DNA of 27,513 nt from the NCBI RefSeq assembly GCF_003334385.1, contig NZ_QOWN01000057.1; one strand, 5' to 3'. Positions 1 through 6,389 of the stretch are shown here, in pieces. A model generated the notes under the pieces. It was not told where the DNA came from. It saw only the letters and a program-made list of their open reading frames with translations, and ran no database searches. Numbering within the stretch: the stretch's first letter is position 1; every line of letters begins with the position of its first letter. Both the position numbers and the translations under genes were made by a program. The stretch comes from Escherichia coli. GTDB lineage: Bacteria; Pseudomonadota; Gammaproteobacteria; Enterobacterales; Enterobacteriaceae.

Positions 1-326
1 AGCGACATAATCTGAATCTGAGACAACATCTGGCAAGGCTGGGACGGAAGTTACTGTCGTTCTCAAAATCGGTGGAGCTGCATGACAAGGTCATCGGGCA
101 TTATCTGAACATAAAACACTATCAGTAAGTTGGAGTCATTACCCGACAGCGAGGTGTTTAGTGTGCCATGTCAGGCGAGAAATTCTATTGGATGAATCAA
201 GTCCAACTTACTCATTGTCAATTTCATGGTTGATTATTCGAAACGTGATGCTATTTCCAACATCAACGCTATAATTGCAGAATAATTGTAGATACATTTT
301 TGTATATACAATTAGGGATGGCAATT

Positions 327-614
327 ATGCCAATGGAGTTTGAATGGGATGAAAACAAGGCCAAAAGTAATCGGGTGAAACATGGCATCCGCTTTGAAGA
401 TGCGGTGTTATTGTTTGATGATCCACAACATTTGTCACAGCAAGAACGCATAGAAAACGGTGAGTATCGCTGGCAGACAATCGGCCTGGTTTACGGCATC
501 GTGGTTATTCTGGTTGCGCATACCATCCGTTTCGAAAGCGGAAATGAAATTATTCGAATCATCAGTGCACGAAAAGCAGATCGTAAAGAGAGGAATCGCT
601 ATGAGCATGGTTAA
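327..614 (+). CDS. BrnT-like (DUF497) type II toxin, putative ribonuclease
   Basis: Translation MPMEFEWDENKAKSNRVKHGIRFEDA...RIISARKADRKERNRYEHG fits the DUF497/BrnT pattern (FEWD..KA..N..KHG..FE.A, RIISAR.A). AGGGA sits 8 nt before the ATG at 327; the ORF track starts the frame at 300, so the start is ambiguous among ATGs at 318/327/333. Confidence 0.7.
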   Translation: MPMEFEWDENKAKSNRVKHGIRFEDAVLLFDDPQHLSQQERIENGEYRWQTIGLVYGIVVILVAHTIRFESGNEIIRIISARKADRKERNRYEHG

Positions 615-903
615 ACATAAACGAGGGACCTCCTCTACACTCGATGTGCAGCATGAGGCCGAACTGAAGGCGCTGGCGAATAAATCCGACGAAGATATTG
701 ATTACAGTGATATCCCACCTTCCAGCGATGAGCAATGGTCTAACGCCGAACGCGGTAAGTTTTATCGGCCATTGAAAACTCAGGCTTCGGTGCGTATTGA
801 TGCTGATGTGATGGAATGGTTGAAGCGACCAGGTAAAGGCTATCAAACTCGCCTGAACGCAATTTTACGTGAAGCGATGCTGCGCGATCAGAACAAAAAA
901 TAA
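601..903 (+). CDS. BrnA-like antitoxin (RHH/DUF4415-type)
   Basis: Translation MSMVKHKRG...SVRIDADVMEWLKRPGKGYQTRLNAILREAMLRDQNKK has the BrnA-type C-terminal motif. Its ATG overlaps the 3' end of the toxin gene by 14 nt (toxin-first order typical of brnTA). The track ORF starts at 460, but that upstream extension lies inside the toxin gene. Confidence 0.65.
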   Translation: MSMVKHKRGTSSTLDVQHEAELKALANKSDEDIDYSDIPPSSDEQWSNAERGKFYRPLKTQASVRIDADVMEWLKRPGKGYQTRLNAILREAMLRDQNKK

Positions 904-907
904 TTCA

Positions 908-925
908 GGCCGCCACATGGCGGCC
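908..925. terminator. GC-rich hairpin (ggccgcc-acat-ggcggcc) between convergent brnA and yjiA
   Basis: Perfect 7-bp inverted repeat directly after the brnA stop (901-903) and after the yjiA stop (937, minus strand). Confidence 0.4.
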
Positions 926-936
926 ATCATCCAAAA

Positions 937-1893
937 TTACTTCCTCAACCCCGCAAACGCTGCCCGAATCTCTTCCTCCGGCAACTGAATCCCGATAAAC
1001 ACCATCGTGCTATGCGGTTTTTCATCGCCCCACGGGCGGTCCCAGTCGGCGCTGTAGAGGCGTTGGACGCCCTGGAATAGCAGGCGGTTAGGTTCGCCGT
1101 CAATCCATAGCATCCCTTTGTAACGCAGTAGTTTATCCGCCGACTCCAGCAGCAGGTTTTCCATCACCCGGGAAACTTCGCTGATATCTACCGGGTAATC
1201 CAGTTCCACCACAATCGACGAAATATCGTTTTGTTTGTCCGCGATAAAGTGGAAACGCGGTTTGGTGCTGACGACGTTTTCTTCCAGCATAAAACCGTTG
1301 GTGTTGAACAGAAGGCCCAGGTCGATATCGCCGTGGGTAACGGTGTAGACCGGTGCGCGGGCGTTGATGCGCGCCAGGCGTTCACGCAGTTTCTCTGCTT
1401 CGCCTGCGACGTCGGTTTTCGTCAGCAGAATACGGTCGGCGTAGCCAACCTGGGACTGGGCGATGGTGAACTGGTTCATCTGCTCATCGGCATGTACCGC
1501 ATCCACCAGCGCAATCACGCCGTCCAGCAGGTAGCGCTGGCATAAAATCTCATGGGAGAAAAAGGTCTGAATAATCGGGCCGGGATCGGCCATGCCGGTG
1601 CATTCAATGACCAGACGGTCGAACTGAATATTGCCCTTGTCGAGATTATCCAGCAGGTCGAGTAGTGCGTCTTCCAGCTCGTTGGAGCGCGAACAGCAGA
1701 TGCAGCCGTTGGTCAGCGTTTTGATCTGCGTGGCGCGGTCGCCAATCAGTTGATCATCAACGGAGACTTCGCCGAATTCGTTTTCAATCACGGCAATCTT
1801 GTAGCCGTGTTGTTCGTTAAGAATATGGCGCAGCAGGGTGGTTTTGCCCGCGCCTAAAAAACCGGTGAGTAGGGTAACTGCAATCGGGTTCAT
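937..1893 (-). CDS. yjiA: P-loop GTPase YjiA (COG0523/CobW family)
   Basis: Walker A GFLGAGKTT close to the N-terminus. Start trimmed from the track ORF (1977) to the internal Met MNPIAVTLL..., giving 318 aa as I recall for K-12 YjiA. Confidence 0.9.
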   Translation of the reverse strand: MNPIAVTLLTGFLGAGKTTLLRHILNEQHGYKIAVIENEFGEVSVDDQLIGDRATQIKTLTNGCICCSRSNELEDALLDLLDNLDKGNIQFDRLVIECTGMADPGPIIQTFFSHEILCQRYLLDGVIALVDAVHADEQMNQFTIAQSQVGYADRILLTKTDVAGEAEKLRERLARINARAPVYTVTHGDIDLGLLFNTNGFMLEENVVSTKPRFHFIADKQNDISSIVVELDYPVDISEVSRVMENLLLESADKLLRYKGMLWIDGEPNRLLFQGVQRLYSADWDRPWGDEKPHSTMVFIGIQLPEEEIRAAFAGLRK

Positions 1894-1903
1894 GCTCTCT
1901 CCA

Positions 1904-2107
1904 TTAACAACAGCGCATACCGCCTTTACCATCGCCGCCGTAGCGTGCGTTCTGGCGTTCGCGGAAGAATTCTTCATAGCTCATGTACGGCTTGTCGGGA
2001 TGGTTGGTCTTCATATGCTCGACGTAGTTGTCGTAGTCTGGAATGCCAATCAACATCTTCGCCGCCTGGCCGAGATATTTTTTTGCCTGTCCTAAGTTAC
2101 CAAACAT
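1904..2107 (-). CDS. yjiX: YjiX, small DUF466 protein
   Basis: 67-aa [36 protein letters not shown]... lying between yjiA and btsT as in K-12. Confidence 0.85.
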
Positions 2108-2128
2108 AGTTCACTCTGATAAGAACAA

Positions 2129-2148
2129 AGCCCCGCCGAAGCGGGGCT
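2129..2148. terminator. Hairpin (gccccgc-cgaa-gcggggc) between btsT and yjiX
   Basis: 7-bp GC stem with a 4-nt loop immediately downstream of the btsT stop on the minus strand, followed by a T-containing tract; possible terminator or attenuator. Confidence 0.35.
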
Positions 2149-2156
2149 AAACACGG

Positions 2157-4307
2157 TTAGTGGTGCGAAGAGATCTTCACGCCGCCTTCCGGGATTGGAA
2201 CGTACGGTGTTTCTTTGTCAGTACGTTTGTCGCTGTTACGCACCGCAAGCCAGGTTTTGAAACCGTAGAAGATGATGCTGTACACCACAATCAGGAACAG
2301 AATACTCAGACCTGCGTTGGTGTAGTTGTTCACAACGATGTGGTTCATGTTGGCAATCTGCTGCGCCGTCAGGTCAGTACCGTTAGCAATCTTCTCTTTG
2401 TACTGGCTTGCCATGTAGAAGAAGCCTTCCATCTGCGGGTTGGTGCTGAACAGTTTCAGGCCCAGCGCCCAGGTGGTGCAGATAAGCAGCCATACAGCCG
2501 GAACAACAGTTACCCAGATGTATTGGGTGCGCTTCATCTTAATCAGCACAACGGTGCCCAGTACCAGCGCTACGGCTGCCAGCATCTGGTTGGAAATACC
2601 GAACAGCGGCCACAGGCTCTTAACGCCGCCCAGCGGATCGACCACGCCCTGATACAGCAGGTAGCCCCACAGACCCACACAGCCCGCAGTACCGATGATA
2701 CCGGCAACCAGAGAGTCGGTTTTTTTCAGGAACGGGATGAAGTTACCCAGCAGGTCTTGCAGCATAAAGCGGCCAGAACGGGTACCCGCATCCAGCGCGG
2801 TCAGGATGAACAGTGCTTCGAACAGAATACCGAAGTGATACCAGAAGCCCATGTCAGCCATCGGCAGCACTTTGTGGAACACGTGAGCGATACCTACCGC
2901 CAGCGTCGGCGCACCACCTGCACGGTTCAGGACAGAAGGCTCACCAATGTCTTTCGCGGTTTGCAGGATCTGCTCTGGCGAAATCACGAAGCCCCAGGAG
3001 CTGACGGTCGCTGCCGCGTGTGCGGTAACGTCTTTCAGCTGCGCCATGATGATCGGCGCGTTCTCGCCACCCATTTCATGCAGGTTAGGCATGGTGATGC
3101 CAAGGCCAGCAGGCGGGGTGTTCATCGCGAAGTAAAGACCCGGTTCGATGATGGACGCAGCAACCAGCGCCATAATCGCCACGAAGGACTCCATCAGCAT
3201 TGCGCCGTAGCCGATGAAACGCGCGTCGGTTTCATTAGCCAGCAGTTTTGGCGTCGTACCGGAAGAGATCAGCGCGTGGAAGCCAGATACCGCACCACAG
3301 GCGATGGTGATGAACAGGAACGGGAACAGAGCGCCTTTCCACAGCGGGCCAGTACCGTCAATGTACTGGGTCATGGCAGGCATTTTCAGTTCCGGGTTCA
3401 GCACCACGATACCCAGCGCCAGGCCGACGATAACGCCGATTTTCAGGAAGGTTGCCAGATAGTCGCGCGGTGCGAGGATCAGCCACACCGGCAGCAGTGC
3501 GGAAACAAACGCATAGCCAATCAGCGCGAAGGTAATGGTGGTGTCTTTAAAGGTCAGTGCCGGACCCCAGTACGGATCGTGAGCAATCACGCCACCGAAG
3601 TAGATAGAGGCAACCAGCAGCACGATACCAATGACAGAGACTTCACCCACACGCCCCGGACGAATAAAGCGCATGTAGATACCCATAAACAGCGCAATCG
3701 GTACGGTTGAGCAAACGGTGAAGACACCCCACGGACTTTCGGCCAGGGCTTTAACCACAATCAGCGCCAGGACGGCGAGGATGATGATCATGATTAAGAA
3801 ACAGCCAAACAGCGCGATAGTCCCCGGTACTGGTCCCATCTCTTCTTTGATCATCTCACCAAGAGATGCGCCATTACGGCGAGAGGAGATAAACAGCACC
3901 ATAAAGTCCTGAACCGCACCGGCCAGCACGACCCCCGCCAGCAGCCACAGCGTGCCAGGCAGGTAGCCCATCTGCGCGGCGAGAACCGGACCCACCAGCG
4001 GACCAGCACCGGCGATAGCGGCGAAGTGGTGACCAAACAACACGTAACGGTTGGTCGGAACGTAGTTCAGACCGTCGTTGTTAATAACCGCAGGCGTCGC
4101 GCGCGTGGGGTCGAGTTTCATCACCTTCTGGGCGATGTACAGACTGTAGTAGCGATACGCCACCAGATACACCGATACAGAGGCGACCACGATCCACAGG
4201 GCGCTGACGTGCTCCCCCCGACGTAATGCAACTACCGCGAGGCAGAATGCACCGATGATTCCGAGAATCACCCAGGGTATGTGCTTGAATATCTTTTTAG
4301 TATCCAT
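2157..4307 (-). CDS. btsT: Pyruvate/H+ symporter BtsT (CstA family), formerly YjiY
   Basis: Long polytopic membrane protein. Start trimmed from 4322 to MDTKKIFKHIPWVILG..., matching my recollection of the K-12 N-terminus (716 aa). Confidence 0.9.
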   Translation of the reverse strand: MDTKKIFKHIPWVILGIIGAFCLAVVALRRGEHVSALWIVVASVSVYLVAYRYYSLYIAQKVMKLDPTRATPAVINNDGLNYVPTNRYVLFGHHFAAIAGAGPLVGPVLAAQMGYLPGTLWLLAGVVLAGAVQDFMVLFISSRRNGASLGEMIKEEMGPVPGTIALFGCFLIMIIILAVLALIVVKALAESPWGVFTVCSTVPIALFMGIYMRFIRPGRVGEVSVIGIVLLVASIYFGGVIAHDPYWGPALTFKDTTITFALIGYAFVSALLPVWLILAPRDYLATFLKIGVIVGLALGIVVLNPELKMPAMTQYIDGTGPLWKGALFPFLFITIACGAVSGFHALISSGTTPKLLANETDARFIGYGAMLMESFVAIMALVAASIIEPGLYFAMNTPPAGLGITMPNLHEMGGENAPIIMAQLKDVTAHAAATVSSWGFVISPEQILQTAKDIGEPSVLNRAGGAPTLAVGIAHVFHKVLPMADMGFWYHFGILFEALFILTALDAGTRSGRFMLQDLLGNFIPFLKKTDSLVAGIIGTAGCVGLWGYLLYQGVVDPLGGVKSLWPLFGISNQMLAAVALVLGTVVLIKMKRTQYIWVTVVPAVWLLICTTWALGLKLFSTNPQMEGFFYMASQYKEKIANGTDLTAQQIANMNHIVVNNYTNAGLSILFLIVVYSIIFYGFKTWLAVRNSDKRTDKETPYVPIPEGGVKISSHH

Positions 4308-4514
4308 AGTAAAACCTGGCATGTATTGATTAATAGTTGGCCGAAGCCGTTCTAGGTTTGCGTTGCGTTTGAGGAGGTAAATTGACCGCTATCCTGTAGT
4401 GATGTTGCCAGAGTTACGCGCGCGTAAAGTAAGGTAAATAACTGAGTGGTTATTTTAGGGATGTAAGCGGTCAGTTTTGCGGTTGAGCGGCAAAGGCGTC
4501 GTTTAAGTGACGAT

Positions 4515-4540
4515 AAATATGTGATTCATATCACATATTT
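4515..4540. promoter_or_regulatory. Candidate CRP site: 10-bp inverted arms AAATATGTGA / TCACATATTT around a 6-bp spacer (core TGTGA-N6-TCACA)
   Basis: Read directly from the sequence; the core matches the CRP consensus half-sites. It lies in the divergent btsT-tsr intergenic region; btsT/yjiY is known to be cAMP-CRP dependent. Confidence 0.5.
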
Positions 4541-4626
4541 ATATTGTGAATAATTTATGTAAATAATGGCTTTTTAAATTCAGAGTGTGAATAAAATTAC
4601 TCGGCGTAATCTCCGCGGGATATTCA

Positions 4627-4653
4627 TAAAGTTTTTCCTTTCCAGGCCGAAAA
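4627..4653 (+). promoter_or_regulatory. Sigma-28 (FliA) type promoter for tsr: TAAAGTTT-N11-GCCGAAAA
   Basis: Matches the FliA consensus TAAAGTTT-N11-GCCGATAA with one mismatch, about 30 nt upstream of the tsr start; tsr belongs to the flagellar class 3 regulon. Confidence 0.55.
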
Positions 4654-4683
4654 TCTTGCATCGGTCCACAGGAAAGAGAAACC

Positions 4684-6348
4684 ATGTTAAAACGTATCAA
4701 AATTGTGACCAGCTTACTGCTGGTTTTGGCCGTTTTTGGCCTTTTACAACTGACATCAGGCGGTCTGTTCTTTAATGCCTTAAAGAATGACAAAGAAAAT
4801 TTCACTGTTTTACAAACCATTCGCCAGCAGCAATCCACGCTGAATGGCAGCTGGGTCGCGTTGTTGCAGACGCGTAACACCCTCAACCGCGCGGGTATCC
4901 GCTACATGATGGATCAGAATAATATTGGTAGCGGTTCAACCGTTGCTGAGCTGATGCAGAGTGCCAGTATTTCGCTGAAACAGGCGGAAAAAAACTGGGC
5001 GGATTACGAAGCGTTGCCGCGTGACCCGCGTCAGAGCACCGCCGCAGCGGCAGAGATCAAACGTAATTACGATATTTATCACAATGCGCTGGCGGAGCTG
5101 ATCCAACTATTAGGTGCAGGCAAAATCAACGAGTTCTTTGATCAGCCGACCCAGGGATATCAGGACGGTTTCGAGAAGCAGTATGTGGCTTACATGGAGC
5201 AAGACGATCGGCTCTATGATATCGCCGTCAGCGATAACAATGCCTCCTACAGCCAGGCGATGTGGATTCTGGTGGGCGTGATGATCGTCGTACTGGCGGT
5301 CATCTTCGCCGTCTGGTTCGGTATTAAAGCCTCGCTGGTAGCGCCAATGAATCGCCTGATTGACAGCATTCGTCATATTGCAGGCGGCGATCTGGTGAAA
5401 CCGATTGAGGTGGATGGCTCTAATGAGATGGGGCAACTGGCAGAGAGTTTGCGCCATATGCAGGGAGAGCTGATGCGTACCGTCGGTGATGTGCGCAACG
5501 GGGCCAATGCCATCTATAGCGGTGCCAGCGAAATCGCCACCGGCAATAACGATCTCTCTTCGCGCACCGAGCAACAGGCCGCTTCGCTGGAAGAGACGGC
5601 AGCCAGCATGGAGCAACTGACCGCAACGGTGAAACAGAACGCCGAGAATGCGCGTCAGGCCAGCCATCTGGCGTTAAGTGCTTCTGAAACGGCGCAACGC
5701 GGCGGCAAAGTGGTGGATAACGTAGTACAGACCATGCGCGATATCTCCACCAGTTCGCAGAAAATCGCCGATATTATCAGCGTAATTGACGGCATTGCCT
5801 TCCAGACCAATATTCTGGCTTTGAACGCGGCGGTTGAAGCAGCGCGCGCGGGTGAGCAAGGGCGCGGTTTTGCGGTGGTCGCGGGTGAAGTGCGTAATCT
5901 GGCTCAGCGCAGCGCTCAGGCGGCTCGTGAAATTAAAAGCCTGATTGAAGACTCGGTGGGGAAAGTAGATGTTGGCTCTACGCTGGTCGAAAGCGCAGGG
6001 GAAACAATGGCGGAGATTGTCAGTGCCGTGACCCGCGTGACGGACATTATGGGCGAAATTGCTTCTGCTTCTGATGAGCAGAGCCGTGGTATCGATCAGG
6101 TTGGCTTAGCGGTTGCTGAGATGGACCGGGTAACTCAACAGAACGCTGCGCTGGTGGAAGAATCTGCCGCTGCCGCCGCCGCGCTGGAAGAGCAGGCCAG
6201 TCGCCTGACCGAAGCTGTGGCAGTGTTCCGGATTCAGCAACAGCAGCAACAGCAGCGTGAAACATCGGCTGTGGTAAAAAACGTGACGCCAGCTACGCCG
6301 CGTAAAATGGCAGTGGCAGATAGCGGGGAGAACTGGGAAACGTTTTAA
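4684..6348 (+). CDS. tsr: Methyl-accepting chemotaxis protein I (serine chemoreceptor)
   Basis: Two transmembrane segments, HAMP domain, highly conserved MCP signalling domain, C-terminal NWETF pentapeptide. 554 aa here, with a 7-Gln tract in the C-terminal linker. Confidence 0.95.
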
Positions 6349-6359
6349 TCGCCATAAAA

Positions 6360-6389
6360 ATGCCCGATAAGCAAAATGTTATCGGGCAT
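6360..6389. terminator. Bidirectional terminator hairpin (atgcccgataa / ttatcgggcat) between tsr and lgoT
   Basis: Perfect 11-bp inverted repeat with an 8-nt loop, flanked by an A-run on one side and a T-containing tract on the other, between convergent genes. Confidence 0.6.

Follow-up and report, generated by a model that had tools for sequence, protein, structure and literature searches.

The glutamine tract heading the Tsr tether of Escherichia coli is a 9-bp in-frame repeat that varies in copy number among strains

The Tsr encoded in the window, a 27,513-nt stretch of E. coli DNA, carries a run of seven glutamines, which was confirmed. The run is one of several copy-number states in which a 9-base in-frame tandem repeat occurs among strains. 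The alleles form a series of 4, 7, 10 and 13 glutamines (4Q, 7Q, 10Q and 13Q), stepping by one 9-bp unit. The window holds the common version; the 4Q allele of K-12 is a minority allele and a short outlier. An earlier note, made from the letters of the window, had suggested a trinucleotide-repeat length polymorphism: the length does vary by strain, but the unit is 9 bp and the steps are of three glutamines. Overall, we consider it likely that the tract is a recurrent whole-unit VNTR at the head of the tether and that it is tolerated with a small functional effect.

According to Pfam, the product of the window gene contains TarH (residues 1–173; 3e-54), HAMP (217–263; 9e-12) and MCPsignal (327–484; 3e-62) domains. 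A single membrane protein carries these ligand-binding, HAMP and signalling domains, as is characteristic of Tsr (MCP-I). The annotation 'tsr: methyl-accepting chemotaxis protein' stood under each match in 5,383 of 5,426 E. coli genomes, and the gene order of the window, btsT-tsr-lgoT, is that of K-12 (MG1655 derivative). By sequence and chromosomal position, the gene is the orthologue of K-12 tsr, and serine sensing is predicted.

The tract reads CAGCAACAGCAGCAACAGCAG and is in frame with the tsr ORF, the sole long ORF over it (Table 1). The earlier note had placed a seven-glutamine run of CAG and CAA codons in the C-terminal tail of a 554-aa Tsr, upstream of NWETF, and both the sequence and the ORF agree. 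Its statement that K-12 Tsr has 551 aa and a shorter run was also correct: the tract of an MG1655 derivative is CAGCAACAGCAG, which encodes four glutamines in a protein of that length. Glutamine makes up 7.8% of the window Tsr, the expected number of runs of at least seven is ~9e-6, and none of 200,000 residue shuffles of the protein contained such a run. These data indicate that the seven-Gln run is not a chance feature. The tract is built as a coding VNTR is, from identical head-to-tail units and with alleles that lie whole units apart.

Table 1. Features of tsr in the window
Feature	Position	Strand	Description
tsr CDS (serine chemoreceptor, MCP-I)	4684..6348	+	554 aa plus stop; from Pfam domains, annotation and gene order
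Gln tract, Q518–Q524	6235..6255	+	Two copies of the 9-bp CAGCAACAG plus a terminal CAG; copy-number-variable element
C-terminal tether, I517–E549	6232..6330	+	33 residues, from the last conserved body residues to the pentapeptide
NWETF pentapeptide, residues 550–554	6331..6345	+	From translation and conservation

To count alleles, we used a 119-nt probe comprising the 13Q allele and 40-nt flanks, which matched 5,386 records among 5,426 complete E. coli genomes. Tract length, which the earlier note had proposed tabulating, separated into 13Q in 3 genomes (0.06%; identity band 95–99%), 10Q in 72 (1.3%; 90–95%), the 7Q allele of the window in 4,060 (75%; 80–90%) and the 4Q allele of K-12 in 1,251 (23%; 60–80%), frequencies of a database in which K-12 derivatives and O157 abound, rather than of natural populations. 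The note had also named, as an outcome that would count against its suggestion, that K-12 and most strains carry seven glutamines; most do, at about three quarters, and K-12 does not. An independent 110-nt 10Q probe returned 72 records at ≥95%, and all 60 of those among the matches listed had the exact 10Q span. Shorter blastn probes of 40, 49 and 58 nt were rejected as allele counters, their bands being mixed with partial local matches at 100% and with joined pieces. In one such probe, 39 records in the 90–95% band are compatible with partial or mismatched alignments, as the listed records of the 10Q class (60 of 72) have the exact span.

The 10Q allele (three units plus CAG, 557 aa) was found in E. 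coli HS, DEF2, LF82, MP1 and 94-3024, and the 13Q allele (four units plus CAG, 560 aa) in RM14723, A13 and Z1323HEC0355. The pattern (CAGCAACAG)n CAG was perfect in the 23 E. coli alleles read, bar one 7-codon allele with a Q-to-H change. This last, in strain 2009C-3133, reads QQQQQHQ, so that the second 9-bp unit is broken; the His interruption would be expected to make the repeat more stable. This strain also has an lgoT pseudogene, which adjoins an IS1 element. Solved structures hold both common forms, 4Q in 6S1K and 7Q in the Af1503 HAMP–Tsr chimera 3ZX6, and the 551-residue Tsr chain of 6S1K aligns to the window Tsr with a 3-residue gap in the tract. Both protein lengths are already plain in public annotation and the PDB.

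To place the tract in the receptor, we compared Tsr orthologues obtained by scanning the genome contigs of 80 species-level genomes, including Citrobacter, Salmonella, Enterobacter, Leclercia, Kluyvera and Buttiauxella. A protein homologue search was unsuited for other species, as the 120 matches listed were near-identical E. coli singletons only. From its start to the invariant F515, each of the 80 orthologues counts exactly 515 residues. Conservation across the 81 sequences ends at R516/I517 and returns only at R540, K541 and N550–F554; W551, E552 and F554 are invariant, and the protein ends in the xWxxF pentapeptide. Between F515 and the pentapeptide, the tail has 34 residues in 47 of the 80 orthologues and 33–35 in 71, within a range of 31–37 plus a single tail of 49. 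By contrast with this near-constant length, tails of equal length are 44% identical vs 88% for the body. At the tract, relatives read RIQQ[E/T/A]QQR.., with which E. coli 7Q aligns gap-free. The tail is 34 residues long in the window and 31 in K-12, the lower edge of the between-species range, and the 13Q tail, at 40, exceeds every orthologue tail except the outlier of 49. In this comparison, 7Q gives the canonical tail length, the one most frequent among orthologues from other genera.

The tract falls in no Pfam domain and begins right after I517, the last conserved body residue. An AF2 monomer of the window Tsr, predicted on the orthologue alignment with moderate quality (mean pLDDT 69, pTM 0.34), extended the final helix across the tract as far as residue 528, as pLDDT dropped from 63 to 48; residues 528–554 were all below 50. 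In this model, the glutamines may add to the length of a fraying helix instead of a random coil. The most apt description places the tract where helix meets tether, and published work likewise sets the tether start at I517 (PMC10561060). Counted from there, the tether has 33 residues in the window, 30 in K-12, and 30/33/36/39 in the 4Q/7Q/10Q/13Q series.

The NWETF pentapeptide docks CheR and phosphorylated CheB, and a linker of ~30–35 residues lets these enzymes act on methylation sites of the same receptor and of its neighbours (PMC7390727, PMC8609364, PMC10561060). With Tar tethers of 22, 29, 34 and 46 residues, the CheR distribution moves by 0.128 ± 0.048 nm per residue (PMC10561060). By this measure, three residues would shift it by ~0.4 nm, a distance below the 1.05 nm that separates the sites, so that a modest kinetic effect is expected. 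In the explanation we favour, the tether need only let pentapeptide-bound CheR or CheB reach the methylation sites; a 3-residue step would be tolerated and would probably shift adaptation kinetics only slightly. Linker truncation was reportedly studied by Li and Hazelbauer in 2006. That 4Q and 7Q Tsr are both widespread and have both been employed in structural work was counted for tolerance. We infer that the functional effect of gaining or losing three residues is small.

The same data bear on a reading in which copy number is under selection. In this case, the 9-bp module would be an evolvable length dial that lineages repeatedly reset under selection on serine adaptation kinetics, setting the reach of CheR and CheB and the kinetics and precision of Tsr adaptation lineage by lineage, so that the 4Q, 7Q and 10Q alleles would be functionally distinct. 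The orthologues lend this idea support: tail length is kept across 80 species while tail sequence is not, which suggests that length is constrained and that a change of three residues may be non-neutral. It is also consistent with the measurable effect of Tar tether length on CheR distribution, with the argument that linker length is matched to methylation-site distances (PMC10561060), and with 4Q being fixed in large lineages, at 23% of genomes, and having arisen more than once. Against it, the predicted shift falls below the spacing between sites, the modal allele just equals the orthologue length, the rare 10Q and 13Q alleles look like mutation-drift tails, and no host or niche association was visible among the matches listed. 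Overall, we regard such tuning as unlikely. If it did hold, the K-12 tether, the laboratory reference, would be atypically short, and quantitative models and the argument comparing the linkers of Tsr and Tar would describe a minority allele.

We return to a tolerated whole-unit VNTR, in which the tract is a short in-frame coding repeat, (CAGCAACAG)n followed by CAG, at the head of a poorly conserved tether. Perfect adjacent 9-bp copies would misalign, by replication slippage or unequal exchange, and one whole unit would be added or removed. Each step would alter Tsr by three glutamines exactly and leave the reading frame intact; repeated events in E. coli would yield the 4Q, 7Q, 10Q and 13Q alleles, with the window at n = 2, the commonest allele, and a tail as long as that of orthologues. 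Slippage is suggested here by the series of whole-unit alleles. As to the ancestral state, the 7Q allele is colinear with the QQxQQRxx motif of relatives, but its two units are perfectly identical, which could also point to a recent duplication that brought a 4Q allele back to this length.

Slippage of single codons in a CAG/CAA microsatellite, as the earlier note's wording implied, is a far poorer fit. The tract is built of CAG and CAA codons only, and Tandem Repeats Finder does list a period of 3, but that description has only 78% matches, as against 100% over 2.4 copies for period 9 (unit CAGCAACAG, 6235–6256). Single-codon steps would generate intermediate alleles. No 3Q, 5Q, 6Q or 8Q allele was detected among the 5,386 complete E. 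coli genomes matched; the 90–95% band, where alleles one codon different would fall, was empty with the 49-nt 7Q and 40-nt 4Q probes; and a single-CAG probe found no 1Q allele across E. coli genomes. The classes observed were 4, 7, 10 and 13 glutamines, and the 60 listed 10Q matches were uniform. We consider single-codon slippage very improbable.

To investigate whether copy number has changed repeatedly, we built an NJ tree of 23 E. coli tsr genes from 1,623 gap-free sites. Rare alleles were deliberately included in the panel, and tsr itself belongs to a mosaic region, which further limits the counting of independent events; the tree gives a lower-bound impression of their number and no rate. 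Copy numbers were interspersed on the tree. BEN2908 (4Q) is 2 differences from E686 (7Q) and 26 from the nearest other 4Q gene; HS (10Q) is 8 from Ec1119 (7Q) and 25 from the nearest other 10Q gene; and 94-3024 (10Q) is 6 from 3PT (7Q) and 26 from the nearest other 10Q gene. At least four tail haplotypes bear 4Q and three bear 10Q. Because the same copy number occurs on unrelated tsr haplotypes, gain and loss of units have recurred in E. coli. BEN2908 is instructive, as it keeps its lineage G seven nucleotides 3' of the tract (REAS, not RETS): import of a K-12-type 4Q allele would need an endpoint within 6 nt, so that such import is unlikely and a new deletion is simpler.

These data leave least room for a sequencing or assembly artefact, to which repeats are prone, or for one ancient indel passed on solely through descent and the recombination that differing tsr flanks indicate is active in the region, an explanation we all but discount given a tract of 12–39 nt, far below any read length, discrete alleles reproduced in independent assemblies (HS four, 8178 three, K-12 many), equal copy numbers on backgrounds 25–38 differences apart with unequal ones 2–8 apart, and the SNP retained beside the BEN2908 tract.

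The tract is not fast phase-variable, as assemblies of the same strain agree: 10Q was found in 4 of 4 HS assemblies and 3 of 3 assemblies of strain 8178, and 4Q in each K-12 derivative among the matches listed (MGY, JME64, MC4100, RV308, EMG2). A contingency (phase-variation) locus was rejected on the same agreement and because a unit length divisible by three always keeps the frame. The 13Q strains RM14723, A13 and Z1323HEC0355 encode an identical 560-aa protein (WP_000919582.1). At the nucleotide level, the tsr of A13 has 9 synonymous differences from the other two and is closer to that of LF82 (10Q). Judged from these differences, either 13Q would have arisen twice or recombination would have occurred inside tsr.

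The K-12 Tsr, as in PDB 6S1K, shares with the window Tsr its locus, its domains, the NWETF end and the sequence flanking the tract. It differs in having one 9-bp unit and a 30-residue tether, as against two units and 33 residues, and in tail residues T530, A534 and E545, which are N, T and G at the aligned positions of the window. In Tar and other MCPs, the tether is an unstructured linker of about 30–35 residues plus NWETF; like the Tsr tail, it is poorly conserved and runs from the end of the signalling helix to an xWxxF that docks CheR and CheB (PMC7390727, PMC10561060, bioRxiv 10.1101/2024.03.07.583918), and at 34 residues the Tar tether is close to that of the window 7Q Tsr, at 33. In the papers on Tar and other MCPs, linker lengths vary by receptor and species, and no homopolymeric or tandem-repeat module is described; the length of tsr, by contrast, varies within a species by copy number.

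In-frame coding VNTRs of bacteria (MLVA-type loci) also have a perfect short repeat, change by whole units, keep the frame and are stable within clones; the tsr tract differs from them in its very low copy number (1–4) and low allelic diversity. With eukaryotic CAG/polyglutamine repeats, it shares a Gln run of mixed CAG and CAA codons and length polymorphism, but its unit is 9 bp and not 3 bp, and it reaches at most 13 Gln with no sign of open-ended expansion. A literature search aimed at prior reports found no description of a tsr Gln-tract polymorphism, and no MLVA scheme or paper naming the tract was found. The tract is a fresh example of a familiar in-frame coding VNTR in a poorly conserved tail, and the finding is ordinary: a routine polymorphism, with no evidence for a special function.

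The allele series nevertheless carries a caution for work on chemotaxis, as the K-12 Tsr of nearly all experiments bears a minority, 30-residue tether. In three quarters of sequenced E. coli and in most related genera, the tail is three residues longer than in K-12. The K-12 Tsr tether, counted as 30 residues from I517, has been argued to be shorter than the 34 of Tar in keeping with shorter methylation-site distances (PMC10561060). That argument rests on K-12; given the common allele, Tsr (33 residues) and Tar (34) have tethers of almost the same length. The natural 30/33/36/39 series offers a ready and minimally perturbing test of models of tethered enzymes.

Other variants of Tsr were noticed during these comparisons. 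In E. coli 3PT (NZ_CM137004.1, tsr at 585–2216), the protein has 543 aa owing to an in-frame deletion of 11 residues, V491–L501, corresponding to ~6154–6186 of the window. Short direct repeats, AAL-(V)EE, flank the deletion, which falls in the second methylation helix and takes out methylation site E493; the receptor may be inactivated or shifted in register as a result. Within the corresponding stretch of the window, positions 6164–6182 have a 6-bp period (CTGCCG, 3.2 copies) that encodes an Ala run, A495–A500. A database protein of 553 aa (P0058) has one Ala fewer in this run, which indicates that the run also varies rarely in length. Two further rare E. coli variants carry in-frame tandem duplications: one of 570 aa (P0007) repeats 16 residues in HAMP, and one of 568 aa (P0077) repeats 14 residues, or two heptads, spanning methylation sites in the first methylation helix. 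At residue 174, the window encodes Asp (5203–5205), where at least 90% of the 81 aligned sequences have Asn, as do the other E. coli proteins inspected; on this alignment, D174 is a substitution in the periplasmic domain.

Finally, the flanks of tsr were read in loci L001–L008 and L089–L102. On the 5' side, the neighbour is btsT, hpaR or a MurR/RpiR regulator, depending on the strain (window ~4323–4683); downstream, from 6349 onward, it is lgoT-lgoR or a TRAP transporter operon. The gene sits at a mosaic junction, with flanking genes that differ among strains. Between the convergent tsr and lgoT of the window, positions 6360–6389 contain a hairpin with an 11-bp stem (ATGCCCGATAA...TTATCGGGCAT) and, after it on the minus strand, a T-run; this element is terminator-like and possibly bidirectional. 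The best matches to the whole window cover 95% of the query at no more than 99.1% identity, and these matches include a tyrosine recombinase/integrase after lgoT. The partial matches and the recombinase together suggest an integrated element downstream of lgoT, in the part of the window that extends to about 23.8 kb.
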